From contig JAWXAY010000058.1 of assembly GCA_034439715.1 (NCBI GenBank), positions 1-22,557 of the forward strand: a DNA stretch of 22,557 nucleotides, given 5' to 3'. Positions 240 through 22,333 of this stretch are shown one piece after another. Made by a program: the position numbers and the translations under genes. Position 1 is the first letter of the stretch; each line of letters opens with the position of its first letter. The notes under the pieces are model-generated. The model saw only the letters and a program-made list of their open reading frames with translations, was not told the origin of the DNA and made no database searches. The stretch is from Pseudomonadota bacterium. Its GTDB lineage: Bacteria; Bdellovibrionota; Bdellovibrionia; Bdellovibrionales; SG-bin7.

Positions 240-271
240 AACTAGCATCAGTTTTGCAATTCTGAATTTTG

Positions 272-3200
272 ATGAATTTCTTAAATTATTACCTACGTTT
301 GATTTTAGTCTTTACGATGGTCTATTCGGGTCCTGGTTACGCCTATGGCCAAAATGCTAAACCGTCCCAACTCTCGCAAGTCGTTGTCAGCGCGCCAGGC
401 GCCGAACTGAGTTTGAATTACAGCCCAAAACTAAAAAAGACTGCTGAGCTCAACGATCAAACGATTAAGTTTTCACAGAAGCTTTTTGAAAAGTTAAAAA
501 TAAACATTCAAAAAGGAAATGTAACCAAAGAGGTTATAGCAGACATAAATATCGCCAAAGCTACTGCACAGGAACTTCAAATCTGGAAGGCCGGAAACCT
601 CTATGCTGGCGGAGGAGCACACCCTTACCGCGCAACAACAGCAAGACTGCCACTTGAAGTAATGCTTTTTTATTCGGCTATATTTTTTAATACCTATATT
701 TCAGGAGTCTTTTCTAGCTGGAGTTCGAGTTATGAAATGGACCCCGCCGCATTCCATACGTTTATGAAAATGCTTCAGGACCCGATAGGCATATTAAGTT
801 TTTATAGTTTTATGATGACCAGCACCGCAATTGGACAACGTGGACACAATATGGTCGGACGCTTGGTAAAGTCATCAACTGAATATTTTAAAGAGTTAAA
901 TAAAGACATTGCGATTAAGGCTTTTGCCGGTGCGAACAAAGATTTTGCTAAAATGCCAGACTACCGATTACCTGAAAATCTCGCCAAAACTAAAGCGGTG
1001 CGTGGACGTGTCAGTTACATCTTAAGAACAATTGGCCCTGTCGGCATGGCATTTGGTATGACAACCAGTCATTTCTTTGATCAAATTCTTCACGATGAGG
1101 ATTTGAAAAAGTGCAACTCAACTTGGCTAAAGGCATTTTCTAGCGAAATCCCCGTTTCGCCCCAGTGGAAAGAGCATTGCGACGTGGCCTACGTTAAATG
1201 GGTAAATTCGGGAACTATTTTTCGCTTGTTGCCTGATCTCGGAGCCATGTTGACTTCAATGACTATTTCACATCTTTTGGTAGGCGGAGTATCAAGTTAC
1301 CTCAGCACTCATCTAGCGAATAAGAACAGCGTTAAGTGGATATTTAAGGGATTGCAGTTAGGGTTCACATTTACACCAATGGGTAAAGTTATAAATGTCA
1401 CTGTCGGAAAGGCGCTGTTTTCTATTTCAAACTTTATGGTGTTTTTGGCTATTCAAGACCATATCGCTGCACCTGTTTTTAACGAAATCTTCAAAGAAGA
1501 TATTGATAAACACATTATATATGCCCAATTTGATAAACTTTTACAGGGCGTAGATGAGCTTAAAGATAAAAATTGGAACGAAAAAAAAGAAGTGTGTAAG
1601 TCAGAAAATGAGCTCTGGTGTCTGTTGAGCTTTGCGAAGCAAAAACTTTGGGATTCAACTACATTTTCGGATAATCTGGTGAGGTTGAACCAAGTTATGA
1701 GCCAACACCGAGCCCAACAATTGGCAGCTGCTTCTCAGGCCAATCAAAGTTGGGTTGATTTTACTCATGAATACATAGTCAGCTATCAGTCAGCCTATCA
1801 AGCTTACAAACAGTTTATCGTTCAAGATGGTAGTGGCGATGTTGATCCCTTTCAACTTCGCGAATATTTACGTGGAGTCCATATTCGAAAATTTGGAAAA
1901 GCTTTTTTTACACGTGATGATTATATAAATGAAGAACTAGGTTTAACTCTAGATCAGTATTTGGAGTCGAAAAGTGTCGATATGCCCTTAGCCAAGCGAA
2001 AGGGCTATTTGCGAACTGAGAGATTCCTAACTATATCTGATGCCGCACAAAAGATTACACCATGGTTAAAAGACCCCTATCACGGCCTTACCCAAACAAT
2101 AACCGCAATTCAAAAACAATTTACTTTTGCGGATGAGCGATACGAAATATTAAGCTTAATTAGCGGTCCAGAAAAAACAGAGTATTTAAAGCTGTCAGAC
2201 AGGAACAGAAAAATCTGGGAGTTTAATAAAAGAAGTCGAGAGGCAGCAATCGGTATTATTATATTAGACCGTGCCCTCATTCAGTTAATGGAAGAACAGG
2301 GCTATACCGACCTTGAGCAAGTACCCATAGAAAACATCTTGGTGCAACTCAAGATTTTTGTCGGCAACTTTTATCCTGAAGGTGACGTCGGTGAAATGCA
2401 GGTATTAGAATTGGCCGTTAACAGCGATATTATGGATCCCAAAAATCTAGAAATTTTGCCAAAGAAATTGGATAGTGTAAGAACACCAAGGCATATTGAC
2501 TATCTTATTGCATCTATGGCGTGCGGACCGATAGCTGAAAAAAATAATCACTTTAATCTTTCGCAACACCTAAACGAAAACATTTCTGTGGGAGAAGCCT
2601 CGGACATCATTAAGGCAAATAGCGAATTGGTTGCTAAAGCGTGGGGAGGAATTTTGCAGTTCTTGCCGCCGCGAATTGTAACAAATCCCACAGACCAAAC
2701 AGTTTGTAATCAAGGATTTTTTAGTCGCGATCTATATTCGGGACCGATTTCAACTACAGGCGCTATGTCAGCAGTTAGCCCAGTCCCCAAAACCTACAAT
2801 AATATTTTTGAGTATATTCGTGGTGACATCAAGCCCTCAGTCTTAGGCGTGGGCGCAGATAATAAAATGAATTTTGACACTTGGTGGGAGCAGAACACAG
2901 GTAAACTTACGCGTTCTGTATTCACTTACCTAAGAGCCCGTTATCGCAAAATTCTGACCCAGCATTTTTATCCCGCGATTGTCACTGGGGAGCAAGATAT
3001 TCGCGATGATTTTGGTTATAAATATTCAGAATCAAAAAAAATTAATGATAAGAACTTTAAAGCTAAAAAGTTTTATACGCAGCCATTGTCTCGAGGTGTT
3101 TTAAGTTCCATCGAGCAAGAGGCCGAATTTTACATAGATTTTCTCTTATATCTATACATGAGTGGAATCTCTGGCGGAAAGCAAAATGAATTGGTCTCCT

Positions 3201-3643
3201 TAAAAAACTCTCTAAAAAATCCTACGGAGTTTGAAAATTTTTGGAACTCACTTCATGGTGCGGAGCCTGAACTTGATGATAAAAAGAAAAAGAAGCTTGA
3301 AGAATTAAAAACATTTTTTACTGAAACTCTAGGCATGTTTAAAAAATCTCATTTAAAAATTCGAAAAATTGGCCGAGGGCCCAATGACCTCAAACTTGTA
3401 AGGACAAAGTTGAAGGAACTTGAGGATTCACAAAAGATTCTCCTTAATCAAATTAAGGGAATAGGCGTGATTTATTTTGGCGAGAAGTTTTCTAACGATC
3501 AATTGGAGTTGCCATTAACTAAACTAGGCACACGTGAGCATTATGTGGAGTTGGCTCTTAAACGCCTAAGGACTCTGGCTAATGAAACGGGCCTCTATGG
3601 CGGCATGGCAGGCAATTTAGCCGAGAGCTTTTTTGGTGATTAG
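272..3643 (+). CDS. Large hypothetical exported/membrane-associated protein (about 1123 aa)
   Basis: Uninterrupted ORF (TTG 269 / ATG 272). Signal-peptide-like N-terminus (RLILVFTMVYSGPGYAYG), several hydrophobic Gly/Met-rich segments within aa ~128-400, and a Lys/Glu/Leu-rich helical C-terminus. No family recognised. Confidence 0.8.
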   Translation: MNFLNYYLRLILVFTMVYSGPGYAYGQNAKPSQLSQVVVSAPGAELSLNYSPKLKKTAELNDQTIKFSQKLFEKLKINIQKGNVTKEVIADINIAKATAQELQIWKAGNLYAGGGAHPYRATTARLPLEVMLFYSAIFFNTYISGVFSSWSSSYEMDPAAFHTFMKMLQDPIGILSFYSFMMTSTAIGQRGHNMVGRLVKSSTEYFKELNKDIAIKAFAGANKDFAKMPDYRLPENLAKTKAVRGRVSYILRTIGPVGMAFGMTTSHFFDQILHDEDLKKCNSTWLKAFSSEIPVSPQWKEHCDVAYVKWVNSGTIFRLLPDLGAMLTSMTISHLLVGGVSSYLSTHLANKNSVKWIFKGLQLGFTFTPMGKVINVTVGKALFSISNFMVFLAIQDHIAAPVFNEIFKEDIDKHIIYAQFDKLLQGVDELKDKNWNEKKEVCKSENELWCLLSFAKQKLWDSTTFSDNLVRLNQVMSQHRAQQLAAASQANQSWVDFTHEYIVSYQSAYQAYKQFIVQDGSGDVDPFQLREYLRGVHIRKFGKAFFTRDDYINEELGLTLDQYLESKSVDMPLAKRKGYLRTERFLTISDAAQKITPWLKDPYHGLTQTITAIQKQFTFADERYEILSLISGPEKTEYLKLSDRNRKIWEFNKRSREAAIGIIILDRALIQLMEEQGYTDLEQVPIENILVQLKIFVGNFYPEGDVGEMQVLELAVNSDIMDPKNLEILPKKLDSVRTPRHIDYLIASMACGPIAEKNNHFNLSQHLNENISVGEASDIIKANSELVAKAWGGILQFLPPRIVTNPTDQTVCNQGFFSRDLYSGPISTTGAMSAVSPVPKTYNNIFEYIRGDIKPSVLGVGADNKMNFDTWWEQNTGKLTRSVFTYLRARYRKILTQHFYPAIVTGEQDIRDDFGYKYSESKKINDKNFKAKKFYTQPLSRGVLSSIEQEAEFYIDFLLYLYMSGISGGKQNELVSLKNSLKNPTEFENFWNSLHGAEPELDDKKKKKLEELKTFFTETLGMFKKSHLKIRKIGRGPNDLKLVRTKLKELEDSQKILLNQIKGIGVIYFGEKFSNDQLELPLTKLGTREHYVELALKRLRTLANETGLYGGMAGNLAESFFGD

Positions 3644-3788: not shown

Positions 3789-4493
3789 ATGAAGAAAGTA
3801 TTACTAGGAATGACAGTGGCTACATTATTGGGAAGCGTTTTTACGGCGGACCTAGCTTTAGCAAGAAAAGGACAAAAGATTGATGCTCGCGCTTCTGACG
3901 CAAAGTTGCTATTTACCGAAACTGTAAATACACATATGAAAGAAAAGACATTATTAGAAGTTAAACTCGGCAATAAACCAGTATCGAGCGTAGAAGTTAG
4001 TTCAAAAAATCTATCTACTATTAAAGATATGTTATCAAATCTAACACCCAGCCAATTAGAAATTCGGGAATTGGTTTCAAACCTCATTAAAGGGTCTGAT
4101 AAGGGTATTATCACGGCAGATACAGCTAAAACGATAGCGTCAATTAAATTGGAACCGAGTTCAGAAAAAGAAACGCTTGTCCTTGACGCCAGTCGAATTA
4201 TTGAAAATTTGGCACTTCGAAAATCAAATGGGACAATTGAGAAAGGTTCTTACGCCGATGCAGAGTCAGCGTTTGCCACTCTACTAATTGATGCAGCCGC
4301 AGGATCAGGTCGATTTGAAAAAGCTTCGCCAGAGGAAATTAAAGGTCTGATTAAAGCGTCTAAAGTTTATCTTGATAACAAAGCTGACGCAAATGTTATG
4401 AAGCTTGTTATCGAAACCATCACCGGCAGCAAAGATGATAAAGTGAACAGTGAAAAAGCTAAAGAAATTGCTGAGCGTTGTAAAAAAGCGTAA
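3789..4493 (+). CDS. Hypothetical secreted protein (234 aa)
   Basis: AAGGAG RBS upstream. Classical Sec signal MKKVLLGMTVATLLGSVFTADLALA, then a K/E/A/S-rich, probably helical mature region. Followed by a terminator. Confidence 0.85.
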   Translation: MKKVLLGMTVATLLGSVFTADLALARKGQKIDARASDAKLLFTETVNTHMKEKTLLEVKLGNKPVSSVEVSSKNLSTIKDMLSNLTPSQLEIRELVSNLIKGSDKGIITADTAKTIASIKLEPSSEKETLVLDASRIIENLALRKSNGTIEKGSYADAESAFATLLIDAAAGSGRFEKASPEEIKGLIKASKVYLDNKADANVMKLVIETITGSKDDKVNSEKAKEIAERCKKA

Positions 4494-5709: not shown

Positions 5710-5735
5710 CATAATAACTGCAAGTGGAGGTGGAT

Positions 5736-6803
5736 ATGTCTAAGTCTAAATCGGTTGGAATATTGTTACTTTTGGTTTTTGGGCTCACTGTGGCCTTCAA
5801 CAGTTCGGCGGCAACAAGCGTTCCGACAATAAAGAAAACTAGCAAAATAGTTCCTCTAAAAAAGTCATTAAATAAGCTGACAAATAAGTCCACTAAAAAG
5901 CCCACAGTAAAGACTGCGAAAAAATCAGACGTTAGAAGGGCCTCAATAAAAGTAGCAAAAACTAATTCTATCTCTAACTCTGAAAATATTCTTACGACTC
6001 GAGCAGCCACCCAAGGGTCTGTCTCTGAAAAAGCAAAAAAATGGACTTTCGGTACTCATGTTGATTATAGACCCGAAACTTCAAAAGCATTTAATTCTGG
6101 AATTGGCTATGGCTTAGATTATTTTTATCGACCTAGCTCTTACCATACGTTTCGTATTTTTAAAGGCGCCGATCAGATAATCCTGCCCTCAGAAACTCCC
6201 GAGAGATTCGTCGTTGGAAATACCAAGTTATTCTATTATTATAAATTCACTAGCCCTGATACTAAGGACCACGCGGTCGCCATGCGTTTTCTTGTGACTG
6301 TGGGCGACTCCCAGCAAGCCCGCACAGATGGCTTAAATTCTGTTCAGAGTGCCCGCCTGGAGTTTAATAAAATGATTGGTGGATTTACACTAGGTCTTAA
6401 CCCGTATGTTTCTTACTATTGGGCGGATTATGCCACTAATGCCAAAAATGAACCTTTGCCACTTTTTGGTTTGGGTCATACTTTGCTTCTTGCTTACTCA
6501 TTTACTGATAAGTGGAGCATTGGCACTGATGTCACGACTGGGTTTAGTTTTTTGCAGCCTGAAGAAATTAGAAAAGCAAAAGTGCTAGCTGAAGCCCAAG
6601 GTCAAGACGCTAGTGCTGTCGTCGATACCACTAAATCAAGCTTTAATGCTGGTGTTGAGCTTGGCTATAAGGCGACAAAAGCATTTTCGATGCGCTTAGG
6701 TTATGCACAAGAGGACGCGCTTGTGAGCGAAGGCAAATACGGCGTTGAATTCTTAGATAAAAAATCAACTAGGGGTTACGTCGGTTTCGACTACAGTTTT
6801 TGA
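5736..6803 (+). CDS. Hypothetical outer-membrane beta-barrel protein with a Lys-rich N-terminal linker
   Basis: GGAGG RBS at 5726-5730 favours ATG 5736. Signal peptide, about 65 aa K/S/T-rich low-complexity segment, alternating amphipathic aromatic-rich strands (WTFGTHVDY, FTLGLNPYVSY, WSIGTDVTTGF, FNAGVELGY), and a C-terminal beta-signal GYVGFDYSF. Confidence 0.75.
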   Translation: MSKSKSVGILLLLVFGLTVAFNSSAATSVPTIKKTSKIVPLKKSLNKLTNKSTKKPTVKTAKKSDVRRASIKVAKTNSISNSENILTTRAATQGSVSEKAKKWTFGTHVDYRPETSKAFNSGIGYGLDYFYRPSSYHTFRIFKGADQIILPSETPERFVVGNTKLFYYYKFTSPDTKDHAVAMRFLVTVGDSQQARTDGLNSVQSARLEFNKMIGGFTLGLNPYVSYYWADYATNAKNEPLPLFGLGHTLLLAYSFTDKWSIGTDVTTGFSFLQPEEIRKAKVLAEAQGQDASAVVDTTKSSFNAGVELGYKATKAFSMRLGYAQEDALVSEGKYGVEFLDKKSTRGYVGFDYSF

Positions 6804-6954: not shown

Positions 6955-8571
6955 ATGAATGGTTTTTTATCTAAATTAACAATACTGTTATTTGTCGTAG
7001 CGGCTGTTGTGCCGGCACAATCTGCGACAGCAGGAAATTCGAAAAACACGGTTACCATGTCTTTGACCGGGGAACCGCCCGATCTCAATAGCATGCGGGC
7101 GACTGACACTCAAAGTGGTTTTGTTCTTGGTCACATCATGCAGGGCCTTACCTCGCGCGATAAAACGGGAAAAATTGTTCCGGGCGTAGCCGAGAGTTGG
7201 AAGTTGGATGCAACTACTGCCACATTTAAACTTCGTAAAAATGCTAAGTGGAGTGACGGAAAACCTGTGACGGCCCATGACTTTGTGTTTGCCTGGCAAA
7301 CTGTGGTCGATCCGGCAACAGCTTCTCAATATGCATTTATTTTATATCCCATTAAAAATGCCGAAGCGATAAATACAAATAAGGATGGAAAAAAGGCTAG
7401 CGACCTAGGCGTTAAAGCTGTCGATGACTATACACTCGAAGTGGCATTTGATAAGCCCTGCGCCTATTTTTTATCTTTGGCTGCATTTTCGACTTATTAC
7501 CCTGTTAGAAAAGATTTTTATTTGGCACAAGATGGTGGCAAAAAGTTTGCTGCCGACGCCAAAAATCTAATTTTTAATGGACCCTTTAAACTTGATGTTT
7601 GGGAGCATGGCTCCAAAATGAAAATGACAAAAAATGAATTTTATTGGAATAAAGAAACGATCAAAATGGATGTGATCGATATTCCTTATTTTATCATCGA
7701 TGCAAAAGCTCGATACAACCTCTACAAAGACAAAAAAATAGATATGGTAGGCTTGGACTCAGAAACTTTTAAAGAGTCTATAAAAGATTCGTTTAAAGCT
7801 AATCGCTTTGCTGATGGCAGCGTGTTTTACTTAGAGTTTAACCATCGACCCGAGCGCGTGACTCGAAATATAAAACTTCGCGAAGCTATTCGATCTATTT
7901 ACAATGCCAAAGAGGTAGTTGATAAAGTTATAGCCTTGCCAGGAAATGAGCCTGCCTACACGCTCTTTCCGAAGTGGCTTAGGGGAGTGGGTAGATCATT
8001 TAGACAGGAGTACCCCGTCAAGTCGCATAAGGTTGACTTTACTCAAGCCAAAAAGCTTCTTGAAGAAGCAAAAAAAGAATTGGGCCTAACACAGTTACCG
8101 CCGATTTGGTTTTTAGTAGACGATGGAGCGGCACCAAAAAGGCAGGCTGAATACGTTCAGGGACAATTGAAAAAACATTTAGGGTTAGATATGAATATTG
8201 ATATTCAGACCTTTAAACAGCGCTTATCTAAAATGTCGAGCGGTGACTTTGATATCGTTGCTGCCGGATGGGGACCTGATTATGATGACCCAATGACATT
8301 TGCCGATCTGTTTACGTCTTGGAACGAAAACAACCGAGGCAAATACGCAAATCCTGAGTATGATAAGGTGATCAATGAGGCAATGACAACAATAGATGCG
8401 AAAAAGAGAATGGATGCCATGGGCAAGGCTCAGGATATACTTATTCGCGATGTCGTCATTCTGCCACAGTACGAACGCGGTATTGTATATCTGCAGAATC
8501 AGAAATTAAAGGGCGTTGTGCGCTCCGTAGTGGGAGCTGATCCTAATTTTATTTTTGCAAGCGTGGAGTAG
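6955..8571 (+). CDS. oppA: Oligopeptide ABC transporter substrate-binding protein (SBP family 5)
   Basis: PGVAESW, FKLRKNAKWSDGKPVTAHDFVFAW, NGPFKL and GWGPDYDDPMTF motifs. AAGGGGG RBS favours ATG 6955. Cleavable signal peptide. Confidence 0.95.
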   Translation: MNGFLSKLTILLFVVAAVVPAQSATAGNSKNTVTMSLTGEPPDLNSMRATDTQSGFVLGHIMQGLTSRDKTGKIVPGVAESWKLDATTATFKLRKNAKWSDGKPVTAHDFVFAWQTVVDPATASQYAFILYPIKNAEAINTNKDGKKASDLGVKAVDDYTLEVAFDKPCAYFLSLAAFSTYYPVRKDFYLAQDGGKKFAADAKNLIFNGPFKLDVWEHGSKMKMTKNEFYWNKETIKMDVIDIPYFIIDAKARYNLYKDKKIDMVGLDSETFKESIKDSFKANRFADGSVFYLEFNHRPERVTRNIKLREAIRSIYNAKEVVDKVIALPGNEPAYTLFPKWLRGVGRSFRQEYPVKSHKVDFTQAKKLLEEAKKELGLTQLPPIWFLVDDGAAPKRQAEYVQGQLKKHLGLDMNIDIQTFKQRLSKMSSGDFDIVAAGWGPDYDDPMTFADLFTSWNENNRGKYANPEYDKVINEAMTTIDAKKRMDAMGKAQDILIRDVVILPQYERGIVYLQNQKLKGVVRSVVGADPNFIFASVE

Positions 8572-9523: not shown

Positions 9524-10941
9524 ATGAGTGTTGAAACAACTAAAACCCAATTTAGCCCCTCTGACTTTACGGCCGCCTCAAGAAAAGACAGTTTGCAACA
9601 GCTCAGTCGACCCTCACTTTCTTATTGGGAAGATGTGTGGATCAGATTTAAGAAAAATCGGCAAGCAACAGTGTCACTTTGTGTTGTGGTGTTTTTACTC
9701 GCCTTTTCTTTTTTGGGTCCCTTTATTTGGATAGTAGAACCTTCTCAACAAAATTTAAATCGCATATCTGAAGGTCCTTCTTTGGGTAGAATGGCACTGG
9801 TAGTTGATGAAAGCTCCGATGAGCAGACGATAGAAGACCCCAGTTTTTTGTATCTACCAGAGCATGATAATCCAAATATAGGTGCGCCCGAGAAATTTGA
9901 GATTATCGGAACTCCGTCAACTTTGGGAGTCGAAATACACTGGACACCCGTCGAAGGAGCTGCAGGATACTTAATTTACCGTAGCGAAAAAGTGAGCGAG
10001 AATTTAGAGGCCATCTCAGATAATGGAGTAGTGATAAAAGAAATTACCTCAGGCAATGAGATCGGCTTTGTCGACCGTTTCGATATTCAACCGAGAAACT
10101 ATTGGTACGCAATTGTTGCCAAATCTATCGATACAACTTCGACACAATATAAAATCGTAAGCGCCAAGGTAGTAAGGGCAATTGGTATTGAGGCAGCGCA
10201 AACTGAGAGTAAAAATCTGGTTAAAGTTGGAGAAATGATAAAGATGTCTGTCCACCCCCTAGGCACTGACTATTTGGGGAGAGATATGCTGGCGCGCCTT
10301 ATGTATGGTGGTCGCATTTCGCTTATCATCGGAATTTTTGTGCCGTTGATTTATATTTTATTTGGTACTCTTTATGGCGGACTTTCTGGGTATCTAGTGG
10401 ACGCGTAGACAACATAATGATGCGGATTTGTGATATTGTGGCAACAATGCCTTACCTTTTAGTTGTCATTATTTTATACATATTGTTGGGTGGGCACGTT
10501 GGCGCGAGATCGGTTTTTGCTCTGATGGTTGCGATGACGTCGACATTTTGGCCGGGAACCGCTCGATTGATTCGTGGGCAGGTTTTGCAGATTCGCGAAG
10601 AAGGCTATGTACAGGCATCTAAACTTTTAGGCTCGAGTACGATATTTATTATTTTACGTCATATGATTCCGAACACCATGGGGCTAATTCTCGTTAACCT
10701 AACCTTTGCTGTGCCAACATCTATTTTTAGCGAAGCCTTTTTGGCCTTTATTGGTATGGGTGTTAAGCCACCTTTTGCCTCATGGGGCACTCTGTGTGAA
10801 GAAGGTGTGAAGACTATGTCATCATCTCCACATGAACTTTTTTGGCCCGCAGTTTTTATTTGTGTTACTACATTGGCGTTTAATTTATTAGGAGATGGGT
10901 TGCGAGATGCCACTGACTCTAAAATGAGGTCACGCGAATGA
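9524..10941 (+). pseudogene. oppC: Oligopeptide ABC transporter permease OppC, split by a single-base frameshift near 10397 (real lesion or sequencing error); contains an FN3-like insertion
   Basis: ORF 9524-10408 has the OppC N-terminal motif SYWEDVWIRFKKNR and HPLGTDYLGRD. ORF 10417-10941 has ARLIRGQVLQIREEGYVQASKLLG, SWG and FNLLGDGLRDA. Adding one G (CTA GGT GGA CGC GTA GAC AAC ATA ATG ATG CGG) restores the usual GYLGGRVDNIMMR and a 472-aa protein. Confidence 0.88.
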
Positions 10942-14597: not shown

Positions 14598-15371
14598 TTG
14601 GATTTAAAAGGTAAAAGGGCACTAGTTTGTGGAGCTTCTCAGGGCATTGGCGAGGCCATATGTTTTGAATTATCAAGTCGGGGATGCGAAGTCTTCGCCC
14701 TGGCTCGAAACAAAGAGAAGTTAGAAAAGCTAACTACAAATTTACCTAACAAAGGCCATAAAATAATAGCTATCGATGTGGCCCATCGAGAGAAATTAAA
14801 AGTTGAAGTTTCAAATCTGCTAAGAGACGTTGGACCCATTGAAATCTTAATTTGTAATACGGGTGGACCCAAGGCAGGTGCTATTACAGATGCGAGCGAG
14901 GAGCAATTCTTAGAAGCTTTTCAAAATCATGTTTTAGTAAATTCTCTATTAGCAAATCTATTATTGCCAGGTATGAAAGCGGCCCGCTACGGCAGAATAA
15001 TCAATATTATTTCTACTTCGGTAAAAATTCCGATTCCCAACTTAGGAGTGTCAAATACGATTCGTGCGGCTGTGGGCAGTTGGGCCAAAACTCTGTCATT
15101 AGAAGTTGGTGAGTTTGGCGTCACTGTAAATAATGTTTTACCAGGTTTTACTAAGACACCAAGACTTGAAGCATTAATTAAAGTCGCGGCTACTCGTGAG
15201 CAAAAATCCGAGGCACAGATTATAGAGAACTGGAAGGCCACCATCCCGCTACGACGTTTTGCCGAGGCCAACGAGATTGCCAATGTGGTGGGATTTCTCG
15301 CGAGTGCAAAAGCTTCTTATGTTAGTGGTGTGAGTGTCCCGGTGGATGGCGGACGGACAGGTTCACTATGA
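14598..15371 (+). CDS. SDR-family oxidoreductase with an atypical active site
   Basis: Rossmann motif CGASQGIG, NTGGP, VTVNNVLPG and VPVDGG. The catalytic YxxxK position reads SNTIR. TTG start with GGAG upstream. Confidence 0.9.
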   Translation: MDLKGKRALVCGASQGIGEAICFELSSRGCEVFALARNKEKLEKLTTNLPNKGHKIIAIDVAHREKLKVEVSNLLRDVGPIEILICNTGGPKAGAITDASEEQFLEAFQNHVLVNSLLANLLLPGMKAARYGRIINIISTSVKIPIPNLGVSNTIRAAVGSWAKTLSLEVGEFGVTVNNVLPGFTKTPRLEALIKVAATREQKSEAQIIENWKATIPLRRFAEANEIANVVGFLASAKASYVSGVSVPVDGGRTGSL

Positions 15372-16543
15372 AGTTCGATATTTTTTTCTCTATATGTCAA
15401 ACAGAAGTCGACGGCTATATGCCGACCGAAAAAATCATGTTTCAGAATTTTTTTGATCAAGTGAGGCTTGCCGATGAGCTCGGATTTGGTACGGCGTGGG
15501 TGGCTGAAACCCACTTATCTTGCCAAATACAAAAACAAAATCCAGGCGCAGTCATTCCTCATTTTAAGGGTGAAATTGGTCTTAACACAGACATCTTGCA
15601 GTTGGCACATTTGGTTTTTGCTCAAACTAAAAGTATTAATATTGGTTCAGCCATTCGAAACATTCTTTGTAATGGCGGCCCCATTGCTCATGCTGAGGCC
15701 GTAAAAATGTTTTTGAGCCTGCATGACCTGTCCCCCCATCGCGAGCGTCTGCTCGAATTGGGATTTGCCTCTGGGCGGTTTCCATTTTCAAATACTCCTT
15801 ATGGTATTAGGCCTCGAAACGCCAATGAAGAGGCGATGTGGCCCTTAATTAAAGGAAAAATATTTCATCAGGCTAGCGAAATTTTCTTAAGGTTTTTACG
15901 CGGTGATGTTTTTTCAAGCCGCGATATAAAGCCAATAATCATTAAACGTGAGGATGCCAGCCAAGTTGAAATTGAATCGTTTTGGAAGTTTGACAAAGTG
16001 GGTGTGATTCCATTGGAAGCACCGCTTGAGAGCTTGCGTTTGATTACGGGCTCTCACGATCCCGCGGCGCAAATATTAGCTAATGAATTTATGCCCGTGG
16101 GGACATTTAATTTATCAATTACGCCCTCCTCTGAAATAGAGACTACCCATGAGCGAATGAAAAAATACTTTCATAAATCCGGTGGACCCTGGAAGCGCTC
16201 GTATATGCCACGTACCGTACTAGTTTTTGTGGATGCCTCTGGCGATTCTGCTGAAGAACAAAATCAACGCGCTCGCGAGCAAGGAAATAAGGTCCTGAGC
16301 AATTATTGGAAGGCGATAGAAGGAACTCTTGATCCAAAAAAAATCGAAAACGCAGTCGACAATGCGCTTTCTGGTAGTCCCACCCAAATTGTTCAACAAA
16401 TTAGAGAGCGCTTTCATCCTGATGACCGTGTGATGTTGTGGTTTGATTTTAATAACCATGATAATGAGGCTGTCAAAAAAAGTATGAGCATTTTTATGAA
16501 AGAGGTAGTGCCTCAGTTAAAAAATTATAGCGGAGGTTTGTGA
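15368..16543 (+). CDS. Luciferase-like (LLM class) flavin-dependent monooxygenase
   Basis: MKFDIF start, QVRLADELGFGTAWVAETH, TKSINIGSAI, LELGFASG, GSPTQIVQQI and SMSIFMKEVVPQL are typical of the LLM TIM barrel; ATGA overlap with the SDR. Confidence 0.88.
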   Translation: MKFDIFFSICQTEVDGYMPTEKIMFQNFFDQVRLADELGFGTAWVAETHLSCQIQKQNPGAVIPHFKGEIGLNTDILQLAHLVFAQTKSINIGSAIRNILCNGGPIAHAEAVKMFLSLHDLSPHRERLLELGFASGRFPFSNTPYGIRPRNANEEAMWPLIKGKIFHQASEIFLRFLRGDVFSSRDIKPIIIKREDASQVEIESFWKFDKVGVIPLEAPLESLRLITGSHDPAAQILANEFMPVGTFNLSITPSSEIETTHERMKKYFHKSGGPWKRSYMPRTVLVFVDASGDSAEEQNQRAREQGNKVLSNYWKAIEGTLDPKKIENAVDNALSGSPTQIVQQIRERFHPDDRVMLWFDFNNHDNEAVKKSMSIFMKEVVPQLKNYSGGL

Positions 16544-16545
16544 CC

Positions 16546-17991
16546 ATGGAACTCATACAAAATTTTATAAATGGTGAATTTGCTTCACCTCAAGACGGCA
16601 AGTACCTCGACGGCTTTAATCCGGCTACGGGTAAGGTCTACTCGAGAGTTCCCGATTCTCGAGACGTCGATGTGGCAATGGCAGTAGTAGCGGCTAAGAA
16701 AGCCTTTCCTGCGTGGTCTAAAAAAACTGCCGAAGAGCGCGCGGAGTATCTTTATAAGATTGCCGATTTAATTGATCGTGATCGCGAAAAATTGGCCTTG
16801 GCTGAGAGTATCGATCAAGGTAAGCCCCTTTCTCTAGCCCGGGAGCTCGATATTCCAAGGGCCTCGAAAAATTTTAGATTTTTTGCGGGAGCCATACTCC
16901 ACACACAGGAAATGTCTACTACTCAGGGGGATACGTCTTTAAACTATGTTTTAAGGCAACCTGTAGGTGTCGCGGGCCTTATTCCTCCATGGAATCTTCC
17001 TCTCTATCTACTCACCTGGAAAATTGCGCCCGCGCTCGCCGCAGGAAATACAGTCGTTTGTAAACCTTCGGAGTTTACCTCAATGACCGCCTTTTTGCTT
17101 TGCTCATTGATCAAGGAGGCCGGCCTACCCTCTGGTGTTTGCAATATTGTTTTTGGCACTGGCGAAAAAGCGGGAGCAGTATTGGTAGATCATCCTGCCG
17201 TACCACTTATTTCATTTACGGGTGGCACCGCCACCGGCGAAAAAATTTATCGGGCTAGTGCTGCCAATTTTAAAAAAATTAGTCTTGAGCTCGGCGGAAA
17301 GAATCCAAATATTATTTATGACGATGCCGATCTTAGCAAAGCAGTGCCGGGGACCATTCGCTCAAGCTTTCTCAATCAGGGTGAGATTTGTGTTTGCGGA
17401 TCACGTATTTTTGTACAAGAAGGCATTTACGAAAAATTTCTTAGTGAGTTTAAGGCTGAAACTGAAAAACTAATTGTGGGAAATCCACTTGATGAAAAGA
17501 CTTTTATGGGTCCCCTTGTGAGTTCTTCACATTTAGACAAAGTCATGAGCAGCATCGAACAAGCTCGCAACGAAGGTGCTAAAATTATTTTTGGAGGAGA
17601 TCGGCCAAAAAATTTAAGCAATGAATTTAAAGACGGCTATTTTTTAAATCCGACAATTATCACGGAACTAGACCGCTGCAGTGAAATCATGCAGCGAGAA
17701 ATTTTTGGTCCAGTGGTGACGGTAACACCTTTTAAATATATGAAAGACGTGGTTGAGTGGGCGAACAATGTGCCCTACGGGCTCACCGCAACTGTTTGGA
17801 CTACAAATCTAGATAGAGCTCACAAAACTGCTGCAAAGTTAGAAGTCGGTACTGTATGGGTCAATACCTGGCTTAAGCGTGACTTGAGATTACCTTTTGG
17901 TGGCATGAAGGCTTCCGGCATTGGCCGAGAAGGCGGCGAATTTTCTTTAGAGTTTTTTACAGAGGCAAAAACAGTAACAATTGGATTGTAA
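16546..17991 (+). CDS. amnC: 2-aminomuconate 6-semialdehyde dehydrogenase (ALDH8/HMSDH family)
   Basis: ALDH motifs PWNLP, FTGGT, LELGGKNP, NQGEICVCGSR and EIFGPV. Family-diagnostic substrate arginines in DIPR and WLKRDLRLPFGG. GGAGG at 16532-36 favours ATG 16546 over GTG 16540. Adjacent to the aminophenol dioxygenase. Confidence 0.85.
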   Translation: MELIQNFINGEFASPQDGKYLDGFNPATGKVYSRVPDSRDVDVAMAVVAAKKAFPAWSKKTAEERAEYLYKIADLIDRDREKLALAESIDQGKPLSLARELDIPRASKNFRFFAGAILHTQEMSTTQGDTSLNYVLRQPVGVAGLIPPWNLPLYLLTWKIAPALAAGNTVVCKPSEFTSMTAFLLCSLIKEAGLPSGVCNIVFGTGEKAGAVLVDHPAVPLISFTGGTATGEKIYRASAANFKKISLELGGKNPNIIYDDADLSKAVPGTIRSSFLNQGEICVCGSRIFVQEGIYEKFLSEFKAETEKLIVGNPLDEKTFMGPLVSSSHLDKVMSSIEQARNEGAKIIFGGDRPKNLSNEFKDGYFLNPTIITELDRCSEIMQREIFGPVVTVTPFKYMKDVVEWANNVPYGLTATVWTTNLDRAHKTAAKLEVGTVWVNTWLKRDLRLPFGGMKASGIGREGGEFSLEFFTEAKTVTIGL

Positions 17992-18005
17992 TTAAGGAGT
18001 AAGCG

Positions 18006-18884
18006 ATGATTGTAGCTGGAGCTTTAGCACCGCACCCACCCCATCTTGTGTATGGCGATAATCCCAAACAAAACGAGCCGCGCTCTGAAGGTGGCTGGGA
18101 AGTTTTGCGCTGGGGTTATGAGAGGCTGCAGAAAAATCTAGATAAATTGGATTACGATGTCTTAGTTGTATTGTCGCCCCACTGGCGCACACAAGTTGGT
18201 ACGCATTTCGTTGGCGTACCCCATCTTAAAGGTAAGTCAGTAGATCCCATTTTTCCTAATTTATTTCGCTTTAATTACGATATGAATTTCGATGTTAAGT
18301 TGAGCGAGGCCATTTCTAAAAAAGCAGAAAAAATGGGTTTAGTCACTGATATGATGCGAAATCCCGATTATCGAGTCGACTACGGCACGATTGTATCGTG
18401 TCACATGACAAATCCTAAATGGAACAAGCCCATCGTAAGTATTTCTAGTAACGGGGCCGCACAGTATTTTAATTTAGAAGTCATGAATTCATTGTTTACT
18501 AAACTAGGTATTGCCACGAGAGAGGCCATTAACGAGTCAGGAAAACGCGCAGTTTTACTAGCCAGCAACTCGCTTTCTCACAGACACTTTACCTTAGAAC
18601 CAGAAGTTCCCGAAGATATGAGTAAGGAACACATTACCAGTCACGCCCTTTATCTATGGGATATGCGCATGCTGGAACTTATGAAAAAAGGCAAGACGCG
18701 CGAGATGACAGAAATCTTGCCTGACTTTACCGAGCAAACCATGGGAGAGACTGATAGTGGCGCTCTGACTTGGTTAATGTCTGCCCTCGATTACCCTGAA
18801 TATCCCGCTGAAGTCCATGCCTACGGTACCGTGATTGGCACCGGAAATGCGATTGTGGAGTGGAGTAAGGGAGTAGAGTCATGA
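18006..18884 (+). CDS. amnB: 2-aminophenol 1,6-dioxygenase, catalytic beta subunit (LigB-type extradiol dioxygenase)
   Basis: Very close to AmnB/CnbCb motifs: LAPHPPHLVYGDNPKQNEPRSEGGWEVLRW, SPHW, GKSVDPIFPN, RVDYG, LLASNSLSH, PEDMSKE and YGTVIGTGNA. Fe ligands His/His/Glu (PH, SPHW, GETDSG) are retained. Confidence 0.93.
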   Translation: MIVAGALAPHPPHLVYGDNPKQNEPRSEGGWEVLRWGYERLQKNLDKLDYDVLVVLSPHWRTQVGTHFVGVPHLKGKSVDPIFPNLFRFNYDMNFDVKLSEAISKKAEKMGLVTDMMRNPDYRVDYGTIVSCHMTNPKWNKPIVSISSNGAAQYFNLEVMNSLFTKLGIATREAINESGKRAVLLASNSLSHRHFTLEPEVPEDMSKEHITSHALYLWDMRMLELMKKGKTREMTEILPDFTEQTMGETDSGALTWLMSALDYPEYPAEVHAYGTVIGTGNAIVEWSKGVES

Positions 18885-19882
18885 AGAATACAAAAAAGAA
18901 CACAAAAATGAAATCTAAAAAAACGTTCAGAAGAGTGTTAAAATCAAAAAGCAAAAAGTCTAGCCTCTCTCCCCTTATTAAGGGCTTTATTGTACCGGGT
19001 TTGCCACATATCCTGCTGGCGCCGGAAAAAAATCCTGGTTGGCAAAAAATGCGAAATGCTTTTGATGAAGTCAAAAATGAAATAGCTGCGAGTGGAGCAG
19101 AAATCCTGGTGATCTACAGTACTTATTGGTCAAGTATTTTGGGTCATCAAATTCAGGCTGAGCCTGAACCAGAGTGGGTCCACGTGGACGATCAATTTTA
19201 CGCCTTGGGCTCGATTCCCTATAAATTGAGAATGGATTCTAAATTTGCGGAATTACTAAAAGAAAAATGTTTGAGCCGAGGTCTACAGGCGCGCACGACG
19301 GCCTATAAGGGTTTTCCGATAGATACGGGTTCGGTGGTGGCGCTAAAATTATTGAATCCTGATAATAAAATTCCGGCGGTGATAATTTCTAGTAATATTT
19401 ATAGCGACCGCGCCGAGAGCATTGTATTGGGTAAGGCTGCGCGCGATGCAATTGAGGCAAGTGGTAAGAAAGCGATCTGTCTGGTTATCACGTCACTCTC
19501 GAATCGCATGCACACAACACATGTGCCTTCTGAAAAGGATAAAATTCATTCTCTCAAGGATCATGAATGGAATTTAAAATTTTTGGAGTATTTGCAAGCG
19601 GGAAGACTCGAAGATGCTTCGCAACTTTCTCGTCAGTTTCATAGAGAGGCCAGGGTTCAGAAAGTAGTAAATTTTAAACCGTTTTGGTGGCTAGCAGGAG
19701 TCATGGGACAAAACAATCTCTACGGTGGAAAACTTTATGAATATCAGCCTATTTGTGGCACAGGCAACGCGCTCGTCGGACTGACTCCTTCACTTCGTTC
19801 AGCAAGAGATCTTGAGTTTGATGAAGACGATCCACAAAACTATAAGGGCGAGCGAAACGTACTGGGCGAAAAATATGATTGA
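18881..19882 (+). CDS. amnA: 2-aminophenol 1,6-dioxygenase, non-catalytic alpha subunit, with terminal extensions
   Basis: FIVPGLP, IYSTYW, HVDDQFY, YKGFPIDTG, SSNIY and FKPFWWLAG match AmnA/CnbCa. Lacks the Fe-binding SPHW His. ATGA overlap with amnB. Confidence 0.88.
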   Translation: MKNTKKNTKMKSKKTFRRVLKSKSKKSSLSPLIKGFIVPGLPHILLAPEKNPGWQKMRNAFDEVKNEIAASGAEILVIYSTYWSSILGHQIQAEPEPEWVHVDDQFYALGSIPYKLRMDSKFAELLKEKCLSRGLQARTTAYKGFPIDTGSVVALKLLNPDNKIPAVIISSNIYSDRAESIVLGKAARDAIEASGKKAICLVITSLSNRMHTTHVPSEKDKIHSLKDHEWNLKFLEYLQAGRLEDASQLSRQFHREARVQKVVNFKPFWWLAGVMGQNNLYGGKLYEYQPICGTGNALVGLTPSLRSARDLEFDEDDPQNYKGERNVLGEKYD

Positions 19883-20981
19883 GCACGATAACTATCCGAA
19901 GAGTCCTTTTGGCGACAGCGAGTCGGGGATTCCCACGGGTCGTCAAGTCGAGTGGGAGCCACTAATAGATTATCGACGAAATGGTGTGAGTGAAAATACT
20001 ATTCACGGAGCGATCTCGTGGTTTAGTGGAAGCAAAAATATTCATTCATTTGGCGGGAACGTACTTTGTTATGGCCGCAGTATGATGAAACCATTTTATA
20101 TTAAGGTTTTTGCGAATGAACTCAATTCGAATACCAATTGGAAGCAAAAGGCAATAAGTGTCGCTAGCCACAACGGCACGGCTCAACACGTCGATGCGGC
20201 GCAAAGTTTGTTAAAGGAAAGCGAGTGGGGGCTGATGTTGACCCCACTGGACACTCCACTTGTGCAGTTTGGCCGGCAGGTACGTCGGCCACGTCGCTGG
20301 TTTAATAATTCTTCGGGTCATCATGCCGCGATACTTCTTGGCTGCCGACTCCGGGGCTTCAATCGCGCTGGCTACACTTTGCCGAGTCATCCTGTATTTC
20401 ACGAATATATGAAAATCGTAAAGACCTACATTGGGAAGGATTGGATGCCTCTAAAAATAGCTCGGGATGGTGACGGGCTGCCCACTGTGGCAATGACTGT
20501 TAATGAGCTTGCGAAATGCTATGCTGAGCTCGCTAAGAATCGCAATGAGGATTGGATTTGGGAATCGATGTGCCGGGAGCCCGACCTTGTGGGAGGATAT
20601 AATCGGCTCGACACTACCATTATCAAGTCTTGCAACAATAAGGTTATAGCCAAAGAAGGCGCTGATGGTCTCTTGGGTTTGGCGATTGATCACACAGATT
20701 ATCCAGAAGGCTTGGGCGTCGTCATAAAAATTGCACACGGTTGGAATCCACAAGCGACTTGGTATATTGCGCGTGGGATTTTAGGATCTTTGGGTTTTGA
20801 TCTCAGAAATCCTTATCCCCTCAAGCGCCAAAAGGCCTTTTTAGTTCCAGGAATTGTGCCGCCAACCCTGATAGATAAATTAGAGAAAATTCCGACTTGG
20901 GATGAATGGGATCCTGATCACGATAGATGGTATTTTGATCCTAGTGAACATAAAAATATTTTAGGTGGTGAGGTTTTATGA
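19875..20981 (+). CDS. Class 3 (Rhizobium AnsA / Asparaginase_II family) asparaginase-like amidohydrolase with an altered metal site
   Basis: RSMMKP, ASHNG, NSSGHH (canonical NCSGKH), HPV, DGDGLP (canonical DGCxxP), AKEGADG and GVVIKIAHG. ATG 19875 overlaps the amnA stop and is preferred to TTG 19812. Confidence 0.82.
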   Translation: MIEHDNYPKSPFGDSESGIPTGRQVEWEPLIDYRRNGVSENTIHGAISWFSGSKNIHSFGGNVLCYGRSMMKPFYIKVFANELNSNTNWKQKAISVASHNGTAQHVDAAQSLLKESEWGLMLTPLDTPLVQFGRQVRRPRRWFNNSSGHHAAILLGCRLRGFNRAGYTLPSHPVFHEYMKIVKTYIGKDWMPLKIARDGDGLPTVAMTVNELAKCYAELAKNRNEDWIWESMCREPDLVGGYNRLDTTIIKSCNNKVIAKEGADGLLGLAIDHTDYPEGLGVVIKIAHGWNPQATWYIARGILGSLGFDLRNPYPLKRQKAFLVPGIVPPTLIDKLEKIPTWDEWDPDHDRWYFDPSEHKNILGGEVL

Positions 20982-21391
20982 GCGAAAAAATAATTGTCAA
21001 TAGTGCCCCAGAGCCAGTTGGAGCCTATCCTCATGCCCGCAAGGTCGGAAATCTTTTATTTTTATCGGGCGTGGGGCCACGAAAGAAGGGAAGTAAAGAA
21101 ATTCCGGGAGTGACTCTCGACGTAAATGGTAACATCAAATCTTATGACGTCGAAGTCCAAACCAAAGCAGTGATTGAGAACGTAAAAAATATTTTAGAAG
21201 CTTCGGATAGTTCGCTAGACAAAGTGGTCGATGTGATGGTTTTTTTAACTAATATGAAAAACGACTTTAAAAAATTTAACGAAGTTTATGCAAAAACATT
21301 TGCAAAAATTGGTGCAACCCGCACCACGGTCGAAGTGGGTGCATTACCTACTCCCATTGCGGTTGAATTTAAAGTGATAGCAACGATTTAA
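20978..21391 (+). CDS. amnD: RidA/YjgF-family deaminase, probably 2-aminomuconate deaminase
   Basis: APEPVGAYPHA, LFLSG, the extra GVGPR..IPGVTLD loop seen in aminomuconate deaminases, FNEVY, and catalytic Arg in TRTTVEV; operon context; ATGA overlap. Confidence 0.8.
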   Translation: MSEKIIVNSAPEPVGAYPHARKVGNLLFLSGVGPRKKGSKEIPGVTLDVNGNIKSYDVEVQTKAVIENVKNILEASDSSLDKVVDVMVFLTNMKNDFKKFNEVYAKTFAKIGATRTTVEVGALPTPIAVEFKVIATI

Positions 21392-22202
21392 TCCACGGTG
21401 GTTCGTCACCTAGTTCTTTTTCGGGATTACGATTCATTTCTTCTAATTGGTTCCACTCTTCTTGGAGATATTCTTGTTGGTCAGCCGTTGCGTCGTCATC
21501 GTCTTCGGGTGTGCTTTTGCGACAGGCCTGATCGGGAGTGTAACTGTTAGTACTACAAATACTAACACGAGCGTCATGACTATTTTTTACCATCGTCATA
21601 ATCCAATCGCGTAAGGGTGTTGGCGATATGGGATTTATGGCGGCATCGAGTACGAAGGCCACTCCTTCTACAGAAACTACGGGTGCGACATGATAAACCC
21701 ATCCCACTCGTCCACTGGGACTATTGGGAGTTTTAACTCTTAAGTTTCCAAAAATAAAAACCTTGTAGGGCGCCTCTAGTTTGGTGTCTTCGAGTTTATG
21801 AACCGCCATAGCCGCGCGGGCATAGCAACCATCATCGGGGTAGAGCCACGAAATCCTTCTGGCAAAATCTGCTTTATCCTCTGTAAATAAAAAGCGGGAA
21901 TCGCGCATATATTCAAACGCCGAATTCATAACACCGACACTTGGCCACTGAGGTAAAATGGAAGTGTCGAGTTCATCTATATCTATCGCCATTTCTTGCG
22001 CGTTTTTGTCGTATAGTTTGGGGCTATGCCCATGAACTTTGATATAGGCTTTGCGCAGGCGTTTCATGCCGTCGTCACCGCTTTCGCCTGGCAGTCGGAT
22101 GGCTGAACTATAGGAATGTCGTTCGGCAAAGGTGGTGGGCCGGGCGTTAGCGAGCAGAGAAATCAGCGATATTAGAAGAGTAAAAAAACTTAAACTTTTC
22201 AT
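21369..22202 (-). CDS. Secreted protein-glutamine glutaminase (protein glutaminase) family enzyme
   Basis: Cys-His-Asp triad motifs WLYPDDGCYARA, GWVYHVAP and FVLD, with KVFIFGNL. AGAGGT RBS and signal peptide MKSLSFFTLLISLISLLANA favour ATG at 22202. Confidence 0.85.
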   Translation of the reverse strand: MKSLSFFTLLISLISLLANARPTTFAERHSYSSAIRLPGESGDDGMKRLRKAYIKVHGHSPKLYDKNAQEMAIDIDELDTSILPQWPSVGVMNSAFEYMRDSRFLFTEDKADFARRISWLYPDDGCYARAAMAVHKLEDTKLEAPYKVFIFGNLRVKTPNSPSGRVGWVYHVAPVVSVEGVAFVLDAAINPISPTPLRDWIMTMVKNSHDARVSICSTNSYTPDQACRKSTPEDDDDATADQQEYLQEEWNQLEEMNRNPEKELGDEPPWIKSLLSL

Positions 22203-22333
22203 AGAGTAACCTCTAGGTGATTTGAAGTAATATTCTAGATGGTAAAGGGGAATCAAAGGAGGCGTCGGCTCAAAAACTAACCAATTGTCTAGTGATTGAT
22301 GCCTTGAGTTATTAACATCGAAATTGATAAATC

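Follow-up and report, generated by a model that had tools for sequence, protein, structure and literature searches.

Organization of the locus

The window, the whole stretch of 22,557 nucleotides analysed here, is contig JAWXAY010000058.1 of a member of the Bdellovibrionota. It carries seven co-directional genes at 14598-21391, and five of the six junctions between them overlap. The sixth gene is the subject of this report. It encodes a serine-lysine (Ser-Lys) hydrolase related to the class 3 L-asparaginases, in which the residues of their zinc site are replaced. The genes, in order, are as follows.

14598 to 15371, plus strand: short-chain dehydrogenase/reductase (SDR), likely a lower-pathway reductase (Pfam adh_short)
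15368 to 16543, plus strand: luciferase-like monooxygenase of an uncharacterised subfamily, putative kynurenine oxygenase (Pfam Bac_luciferase, 1.3e-11)
16540 to 17991, plus strand: aldehyde dehydrogenase (ALDH) of the muconic-semialdehyde type, AmnC-like (best profiles TIGR02299 and TIGR03216, neither reaching its cut-off)
18006 to 18884, plus strand: 2-aminophenol 1,6-dioxygenase beta subunit, AmnB-like (PDB 8ihg_A, E 1.6e-118; 3vsg_B, 2.4e-117)
18881 to 19882, plus strand: 2-aminophenol 1,6-dioxygenase alpha subunit, AmnA-like (PDB 7txy_A, E 7.5e-44)
19875 to 20981, plus strand: Asparaginase_II-fold Ser-Lys hydrolase, the main feature (Pfam, alignment, AlphaFold model, Foldseek)
20978 to 21391, plus strand: RidA-family protein, likely 2-aminomuconate deaminase, AmnD-like (Pfam Ribonuc_L-PSP)

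The hydrolase gene is an unbroken frame of 368 amino acids whose start overlaps the end of amnA by 8 bases. The product matches Pfam Asparaginase_II (PF06089) with 148.6 bits, where the cut-off is 25. Its AlphaFold model has a mean predicted local distance difference test score (pLDDT) of 91.6 and a predicted template modelling score of 0.89, and the best PDB matches of this model in Foldseek are all ReAV or ReAIV, the class 3 L-asparaginases of Rhizobium etli (TM 0.65-0.70, 20-24% identity). In 42 of 43 complete loci the hydrolase ranks first in conservation among the seven operon proteins, with a mean of 76% against 50-66%, a figure biased upward because the loci were chosen by similarity to the hydrolase. 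Decay to a pseudogene was rejected, the frame being intact and the hydrolase the best conserved of the set. It is a real, conserved and biologically meaningful gene, and it varies a known fold within what is likely a pathway not yet described. A scan for promoters and terminators gave no excess over shuffled sequences.

Active site of the hydrolase

The following elements were located by alignment; residue roles in ReAV, including the oxyanion-hole Ala266, are taken from PMC12951835 and PMC12292245.

20076 to 20093, plus strand: RSMMKP, with Arg68, Ser69 (the nucleophile Ser48 of ReAV) and Lys72 (ReAV Lys51)
20163 to 20177, plus strand: ASHNG, with Ser98 (ReAV Ser80)
20307 to 20324, plus strand: NSSGHH, with Asn145, Ser146 (ReAV Cys135), His149 (ReAV Lys138) and His150 (ReAV His139)
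20466 to 20474, plus strand: DGD, with Asp198 (ReAV Asp187) and Asp200 (in place of ReAV Cys189)
20649 to 20669, plus strand: AKEGADG, with Lys260 (ReAV Lys263), Ala263 (aligned to Ala266) and Asp264

Both Ser-Lys tandems of ReAV (Ser48-Lys51 and Ser80-Lys263) are retained, Arg68 aligns with Arg47, and the second-shell residues His139, Tyr156 and Asp187 are kept as His150, Tyr167 and Asp198. In the alignment with ReAV and ReAIV, NSSGHH falls on NCSGKH and DGD on DGC, so that all three zinc ligands are replaced: Cys135 by Ser146, Lys138 by His149, and Cys189 by Asp200. An earlier sequence-only reading of this DNA had described the intact tandems and these three substitutions, and both descriptions were borne out, with the motifs at the positions it gave. 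The protein thus has the profile and fold of a class 3 L-asparaginase and lacks the zinc ligands of that class; for this reason it should not be filed as one. It is a PF06089 member whose chemistry, judged from its residues, is likely ReAV-like.

Among ReAV orthologues Cys135, Lys138 and Cys189 are conserved at 99%, 97% and 99%, according to PMC11024299. The same paper reports that ReAV variants C135A and C189A do not bind zinc and are inactive on asparagine, and that K138A is slow yet active, with reduced zinc binding. Arg47 also holds the alpha-carboxylate of the substrate and Ser48 forms the beta-acyl enzyme, as stated in PMC12292245. Other differences from ReAV and ReAIV (PDB 7os3, 9g66, 8cly, 8ori), with which the fold, the tandems and the equivalents of Arg47, His139, Tyr156 and Asp187 are shared, are the change of Cys249 to Asp and of IEDG to IAHG, the fixed place of the gene in a tryptophan operon, and the putative substrate, an aryl beta-aspartyl compound. 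According to PMC13451416, beta-aspartyl peptidase activity is lacking in both ReAV and ReAIV.

Variation of the site among relatives

The query and its 120 best homologues read NNSSGHH in 116 of 121 cases and NNSSGQH in the other 4, with DGDG in all 121. The Ser/His/Asp variant is therefore neither chance nor an assembly error, and the substitutions are not unique to this sequence; uniqueness is what the sequence-only reading would have counted against itself. The wider survey pooled 317 distinct sequences, 7 of them canonical controls and 310 others. Asp198 is invariant in all 317 rows; Arg68, Ser69 and Lys72 are kept in 313, 314 and 314, the remainder being gaps save for one change of Arg to Ile. 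At positions 146 and 200 the 310 relatives have Ser with Asp in 225 cases and Cys with Cys in 83, and the last two are one Cys with Gly and one truncated row. Mixed states (Ser with Cys, or Cys with Asp) were found in none of the 310. Asn145 accompanies the Ser and Asp pair in 225/225 rows. Position 149 is free: the Ser and Asp rows have His (208), Gln (14), Leu (1), Val (1) or Asn (1), and the Cys and Cys rows have Glu (62), Lys (20) or Gln (1). A further 72 more distant representatives (at least 190 amino acids) include 57 that cover both sites; 55 of these are Cys with Cys, 2 are apparently misaligned, and none is mixed.

Since the two states recur in large numbers and never mix, the site is remodelled and not decayed, as the earlier reading had held for this intact frame. 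Its further claim, that three changes were coordinated, was not supported. As the alignment has it, the coupled unit is Asn/Ser...Asp versus Cys...Cys, with His149 optional. This analysis adds that the two Cys positions switch strictly together with Asn145 and that the His position is free.

In a tree that included the motif columns, the Ser and Asp sequences form one main clade plus sequence P0140. Trees built without these columns require 4 state changes on 73 rows, and 3 on the 53 rows left after removal of 20 long, divergent or near-duplicate ones. A single origin of Ser/Asp is only narrowly rejected (approximately unbiased test, p = 0.045, 53 rows), a borderline value. These are quick trees, and the direction of the state change is not settled by them. 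The repeated switch of the anchor is likewise an addition of this analysis. A transfer of the segment that lies between positions 146 and 200 fails to explain P0140 and is ambiguous for L059.

Recurrence of the gene set

Neighbourhoods were counted in the best 80 of 345 loci, many of which are interrupted by contig ends. The partners of the hydrolase in these 80 are amnA (73), RidA (67), amnB (66, from 69 matches minus 3 cross-hits at less than 30%), ALDH (54), the monooxygenase (51) and the SDR (45). The set recurs in several gene orders in Bdellovibrionota, Acidobacteriota, Planctomycetota and Poseidoniales archaea. The NSSGHH/DGD variant marks out a large group linked to amnBA neighbourhoods, a point that the sequence-only reading had named for checking. 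However, relatives with Cys/Glu/Cys, Cys/Gln/Cys or Cys/Lys/Cys occupy the same operons, which runs counter to its suggestion that the new site fits a new substrate. The ligand swap did not create the job of the enzyme, because Cys-bearing relatives sit in the same operons; as the cause of a new job it was rejected.

Several loci join the set to tryptophan genes. L096 has the monooxygenase, the hydrolase, the KynB cyclase and tryptophan 2,3-dioxygenase (TDO) consecutively, and L084 reads TDO, monooxygenase, one gene, hydrolase, ALDH and, further on, amnB, amnA and KynB. In families f15 and f26 the hydrolase and KynB form one fused protein, and such a fusion follows the monooxygenase at L099-L101, L112 and L114. 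The cultured strain Sulfidibacter corallicola M133 (L009) has TDO, SDR, monooxygenase, ALDH and RidA at one locus and amnB, amnA and the hydrolase, in the NNSSGHH/DGD form, at a second. A glutamine-synthetase-like gene (L140:6396-7496) lies immediately upstream of the latter three. A near-identical pair of RidA genes around an unrelated gene lies downstream of the hydrolase at another locus (L094:6134-6541 and 8088-8495). Poseidoniales loci have an alpha/beta hydrolase with an HGGFW motif beside the SDR (L060:18870-19637), a candidate non-KynB formamidase; the operon is interrupted by a panB-like gene.

Probable link to tryptophan breakdown

The canonical kynurenine pathway consists of TDO, KynB, kynurenine 3-monooxygenase (KMO), kynureninase (KynU), 3-hydroxyanthranilate 3,4-dioxygenase (3-HAO), aminocarboxymuconate semialdehyde decarboxylase (ACMSD), aminomuconate semialdehyde dehydrogenase and a deaminase. 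The genome that holds the window is 95.7% complete. It has TDO (PF03301, 339.5 bits) and a KynB-like cyclase (TIGR03035, 193.7 bits, under the cut-off of 223) two genes apart on another contig. Kynureninase, 3-HAO, KMO and ACMSD were not found in it, whereas control queries matched.

A sample of 221 genomes of the phylum, which are related and not independent trials and many of which are incomplete, contains TDO in 150, kynureninase in 51, the monooxygenase in 35 and amnB in 28. Every one of the 35 monooxygenase genomes combines TDO with a PF06089 partner, and kynureninase is in none of them. The 28 amnB genomes are all monooxygenase-positive. In family f15 (29 genomes) the monooxygenase (10) and kynureninase (13) are mutually exclusive. 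Neither a KMO orthologue nor 3-HAO was found in any of 36 monooxygenase genomes, and both were found in 11/11 kynureninase controls; in one genome (G144) two flavoproteins match at 31-33%, against 43-47% for KMO orthologues. Close orthologues of the hydrolase (at least 60% identity) co-occur with the monooxygenase and TDO in 21/21 cases. Among forty genomes that carry loci, at least two of which are also in the sample of 221, TDO is in 39 and kynureninase in none.

In genus g9 of this sample (14 genomes) TDO is present in 14/14, kynureninase and the monooxygenase in 0/14, and an SDR orthologue in 9/14; the orthologue at L136:8484-9260 has no tryptophan genes alongside.

The canonical counterpart at L138 reads TDO, SDR, ALDH, RidA, 3-HAO, ACMSD, cyclase, KynU and KMO. 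Four of its genes occupy the place of the monooxygenase, hydrolase, amnB and amnA, so that the two pathways appear to exchange a module. TDO, KynB and a lower part made of ALDH, RidA and either SDR or 4-oxalocrotonate decarboxylase plus hydratase are in common; the monooxygenase, the hydrolase, AmnB and AmnA stand in place of KMO, KynU, 3-HAO and ACMSD. RidA and SDR orthologues are present in canonical operons too (TDO-SDR-ALDH-RidA-HAO in the case of the SDR), and the SDR is not specific to the monooxygenase. RidA-family 2-aminomuconate deaminases are confirmed in kynurenine clusters by a 2026 preprint (10.64898/2026.06.05.730449).

Proposed route

Kynurenine can be described as a beta-aspartyl group on an aniline ring. 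The swapped module must give 2-aminomuconate semialdehyde from kynurenine, and AmnBA needs 2-aminophenol. On the evidence of gene content and residues, the hydrolase probably acts on an oxygenated kynurenine, from which it would free aspartate and 2-aminophenol, in a tryptophan route that does without kynureninase. TDO and KynB would give kynurenine. The luciferase-like enzyme would then insert an oxygen between the ring and the carbonyl, a reaction of the Baeyer-Villiger type, and the product would be an ester of 2-aminophenol with a beta-aspartyl group; this ester might isomerise to N4-(2-hydroxyphenyl)asparagine. Ser69 would attack the beta-carbonyl to form a beta-aspartyl enzyme as in ReAV, with 2-aminophenol leaving first and aspartate afterwards. 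AmnBA, ALDH, RidA and SDR would take the ring onward via 2-aminomuconate. In a variant order the monooxygenase and the hydrolase would act on N-formylkynurenine and KynB would deformylate later, with the same products; this order would suit the fusions of the hydrolase to KynB. The class 3 fold fits such a substrate because it forms a beta-aspartyl enzyme, and the leaving group is the sole difference between asparagine and the ester or its N-acyl isomer. The sequence-only reading had put forward an aryl-aspartyl amide or ester, which is judged the best-fitting substrate. That reading was right about the remodelled site and the tie to amnBA and unsupported on a coordinated triad, and it missed the kynureninase-free tryptophan context. 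Compared with the canonical pathway, the proposed route would give aspartate, not alanine and CO2, and would bypass the precursor of quinolinate.

Baeyer-Villiger chemistry is the presumed reaction of the monooxygenase. Its model has a pLDDT of 92.8, and Foldseek matches it to 8cbb, RslO1, luciferase and the type II Baeyer-Villiger diketocamphane monooxygenase 4uwm. The fold of 4uwm is the same, although it ranks only tenth (E 2.7e-14, 16% identical) behind other luciferase-fold proteins, and no reductase gene accompanies the monooxygenase in the operon. The SDR was considered as its reductase and is an unlikely one, since canonical operons that lack the monooxygenase carry this SDR and many monooxygenase genomes gave no match to it.

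Several observations count against the route. Solved proteins of the luciferase fold, some of which are not oxygenases, share no more than 12-17% identity with the monooxygenase. No member of a flavin reductase family is among the genes of the operon; elsewhere in the genome PF03358 matches once and PF01613 not at all. AmnB was not found in 7 of the 35 monooxygenase genomes. A search of the genome of the window for further asparaginases, of classes 1, 2 and 3, found none, so that this enzyme may have some asparaginase activity. Nine genomes with kynureninase, KMO and 3-HAO retain the hydrolase domain fused to KynB (L097:8214-9812, L098:1190-2764, L102:6615-8201 and L104-L109), and neither the monooxygenase nor amnB was found in them. 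The 8 full-length fused copies, in three separate branches, keep the catalytic and the Cys/Lys/Cys residues. Decay of the fused domain was expected in these genomes and was not seen, its end branches being no longer than those of monooxygenase-positive genomes; the domain, being intact there, has some use without the monooxygenase. The retention of these fusions in kynureninase genomes is a further addition of this analysis. The seven genomes with monooxygenase and hydrolase in which amnB was not found are G097, G186, G210, G037, G051, G065 and G104. Such genomes may, as a guess, keep the aspartate and excrete the ring or 2-aminophenol.

The same gene set and carbon balance, and the absence of KMO, would also fit an improbable scheme in which the monooxygenase hydroxylates kynurenine at C3 and the hydrolase cuts the aryl-carbonyl C-C bond of 3-hydroxykynurenine to aspartate and 2-aminophenol; a serine nucleophile could attack the ketone. 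This scheme predicts that the monooxygenase should pair with kynureninase and 3-HAO, which was seen in 0/35 and 0/36 genomes. Since no genome pairs the monooxygenase with kynureninase, its product is not likely to be 3-hydroxykynurenine. In the nine genomes that combine KMO with the hydrolase domain, moreover, amnB was not found, and aryl C-C cleavage by a Ser-Lys tandem is not known for this fold.

Slightly less probable still is that the enzyme is no beta-aspartyl hydrolase and works instead as an aryl-formamidase or a general aryl-amidase, with N-formylkynurenine or an N-acyl aminophenol as its substrate. Loss of the zinc anchor could mean that recognition of an alpha-amino acid was lost, and the domain persists beside TDO in the nine kynureninase genomes without the monooxygenase. 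However, a KynB-like cyclase occurs in the genome of the window and also within these operons, or as a fusion with the domain; the equivalents of Arg47, Asp187 and His139 are retained and sister sequences retain the Cys pair. The step from kynurenine to 2-aminophenol would also have no hydrolase. An ordinary L-asparaginase with a reshaped anchor, kept here by chance or because it supplies nitrogen, or an enzyme of two functions for which asparagine matters most, agrees with the intact catalytic residues, the intact fused domains without the monooxygenase and the sole asparaginase-like gene found in the genome, and is nonetheless very unlikely, given that either Cys-to-Ala change kills ReAV according to PMC11024299, that 21/21 close orthologues accompany the monooxygenase and TDO, and that at least three genomes (G098, G154, G214) have a separate canonical NNCSGKH paralogue.

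Substrate anchor

Returning to release of aspartate and 2-aminophenol as the preferred function, substrate binding by this hydrolase is likely to occur without zinc. In the Ser/Asp subgroup Asp200 would pair with the alpha-ammonium group and Arg68 would hold the alpha-carboxylate, so that the zinc anchor would be replaced. The balance tips moderately towards such a metal-free anchor, the geometry of which is drawn from the alignment. It is likelier than a new metal triad because position 149 is free (His, Gln, Leu, Val, Asn). A lesser but serious possibility is that Ser146, His149 and Asp200, together with Asp198, retain a metal (weakly bound Zn, or else Mn or Fe) and that the substrate is anchored through it as in ReAV. 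Both His and Asp often serve as metal ligands, His149 is present in 208/225 rows, Asp198 is invariant, and ReAV tolerates K138A with reduced zinc binding, according to PMC11024299. On the other side, Ser is a poor ligand, His149 gives way to Gln, Leu, Val or Asn in 17/225 rows, and the strict switching of Asn145 with the pair (225/225) suits a hydrogen-bond network.

Comparison with 2-aminophenol pathways and significance

The 2-aminophenol meta-cleavage systems (amn/cnb; PDB 3vsg, 8ihg; the ARO microcompartment, 7txy) have counterparts here, by sequence similarity, of AmnB, AmnA, the semialdehyde dehydrogenase and the deaminase. Unlike those clusters, the present one would be fed by tryptophan and not by nitroaromatics, and it has the SDR instead of 4-oxalocrotonate decarboxylase and hydratase. 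These two gave no tblastn hit in the genome of the window, where a control query matched, and are present in other members. The natural upstream molecule of 2-aminophenol is described as unidentified in the ARO paper (PMC10470539). No description of the present tryptophan route was found in full-text searches of open-access literature.

Taken as a whole, and tentatively, the data would describe a widespread, undescribed route in which a monooxygenase of the Baeyer-Villiger type acts together with a class 3 asparaginase relative, the first to have an aryl leaving group. The two would split kynurenine into aspartate and 2-aminophenol and would so supply the amn enzymes naturally with the latter, and within this route the anchor would have switched at least three times between Cys-zinc-Cys and metal-free Asn/Ser/Asp, always as a set and with the same job. 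If true, predatory bacteria, planctomycetes, acidobacteria and marine archaea would share a kynureninase-free tryptophan branch with two unassigned reactions, 2-aminophenol would have a natural origin, and hundreds of 'L-asparaginase II' annotations would be corrected. The family would also be a natural test of whether protein side chains can replace a zinc anchor, the engineered Cys mutants of ReAV being dead. The route is directly testable because a cultured Ser/His/Asp strain exists (S. corallicola M133).

Other features of the locus

The SDR (14598-15371; also L137:1838-2854 and L138:9673-10461) occurs in canonical kynurenine operons, where it seems to alternate with 4-oxalocrotonate decarboxylase plus hydratase. 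It is a candidate reductase towards 2-oxoadipate. A protein-glutaminase-like gene at 21369-22256 on the minus strand (Pfam Gln_deamidase_2, 97.6 bits) overlaps the end of the RidA gene with its 3' end. Three plus-strand open reading frames at 269-3643, 3789-4493 and 5724-6803 (1124, 234 and 359 amino acids) have signal-like N-termini and no Pfam match. An oligopeptide-permease-like gene at 9524-10941, of the OppC type by eye, occupies two successive frames of 294 and 174 amino acids; the first contains a long insert, and the arrangement may reflect a frameshift or nonsense break.

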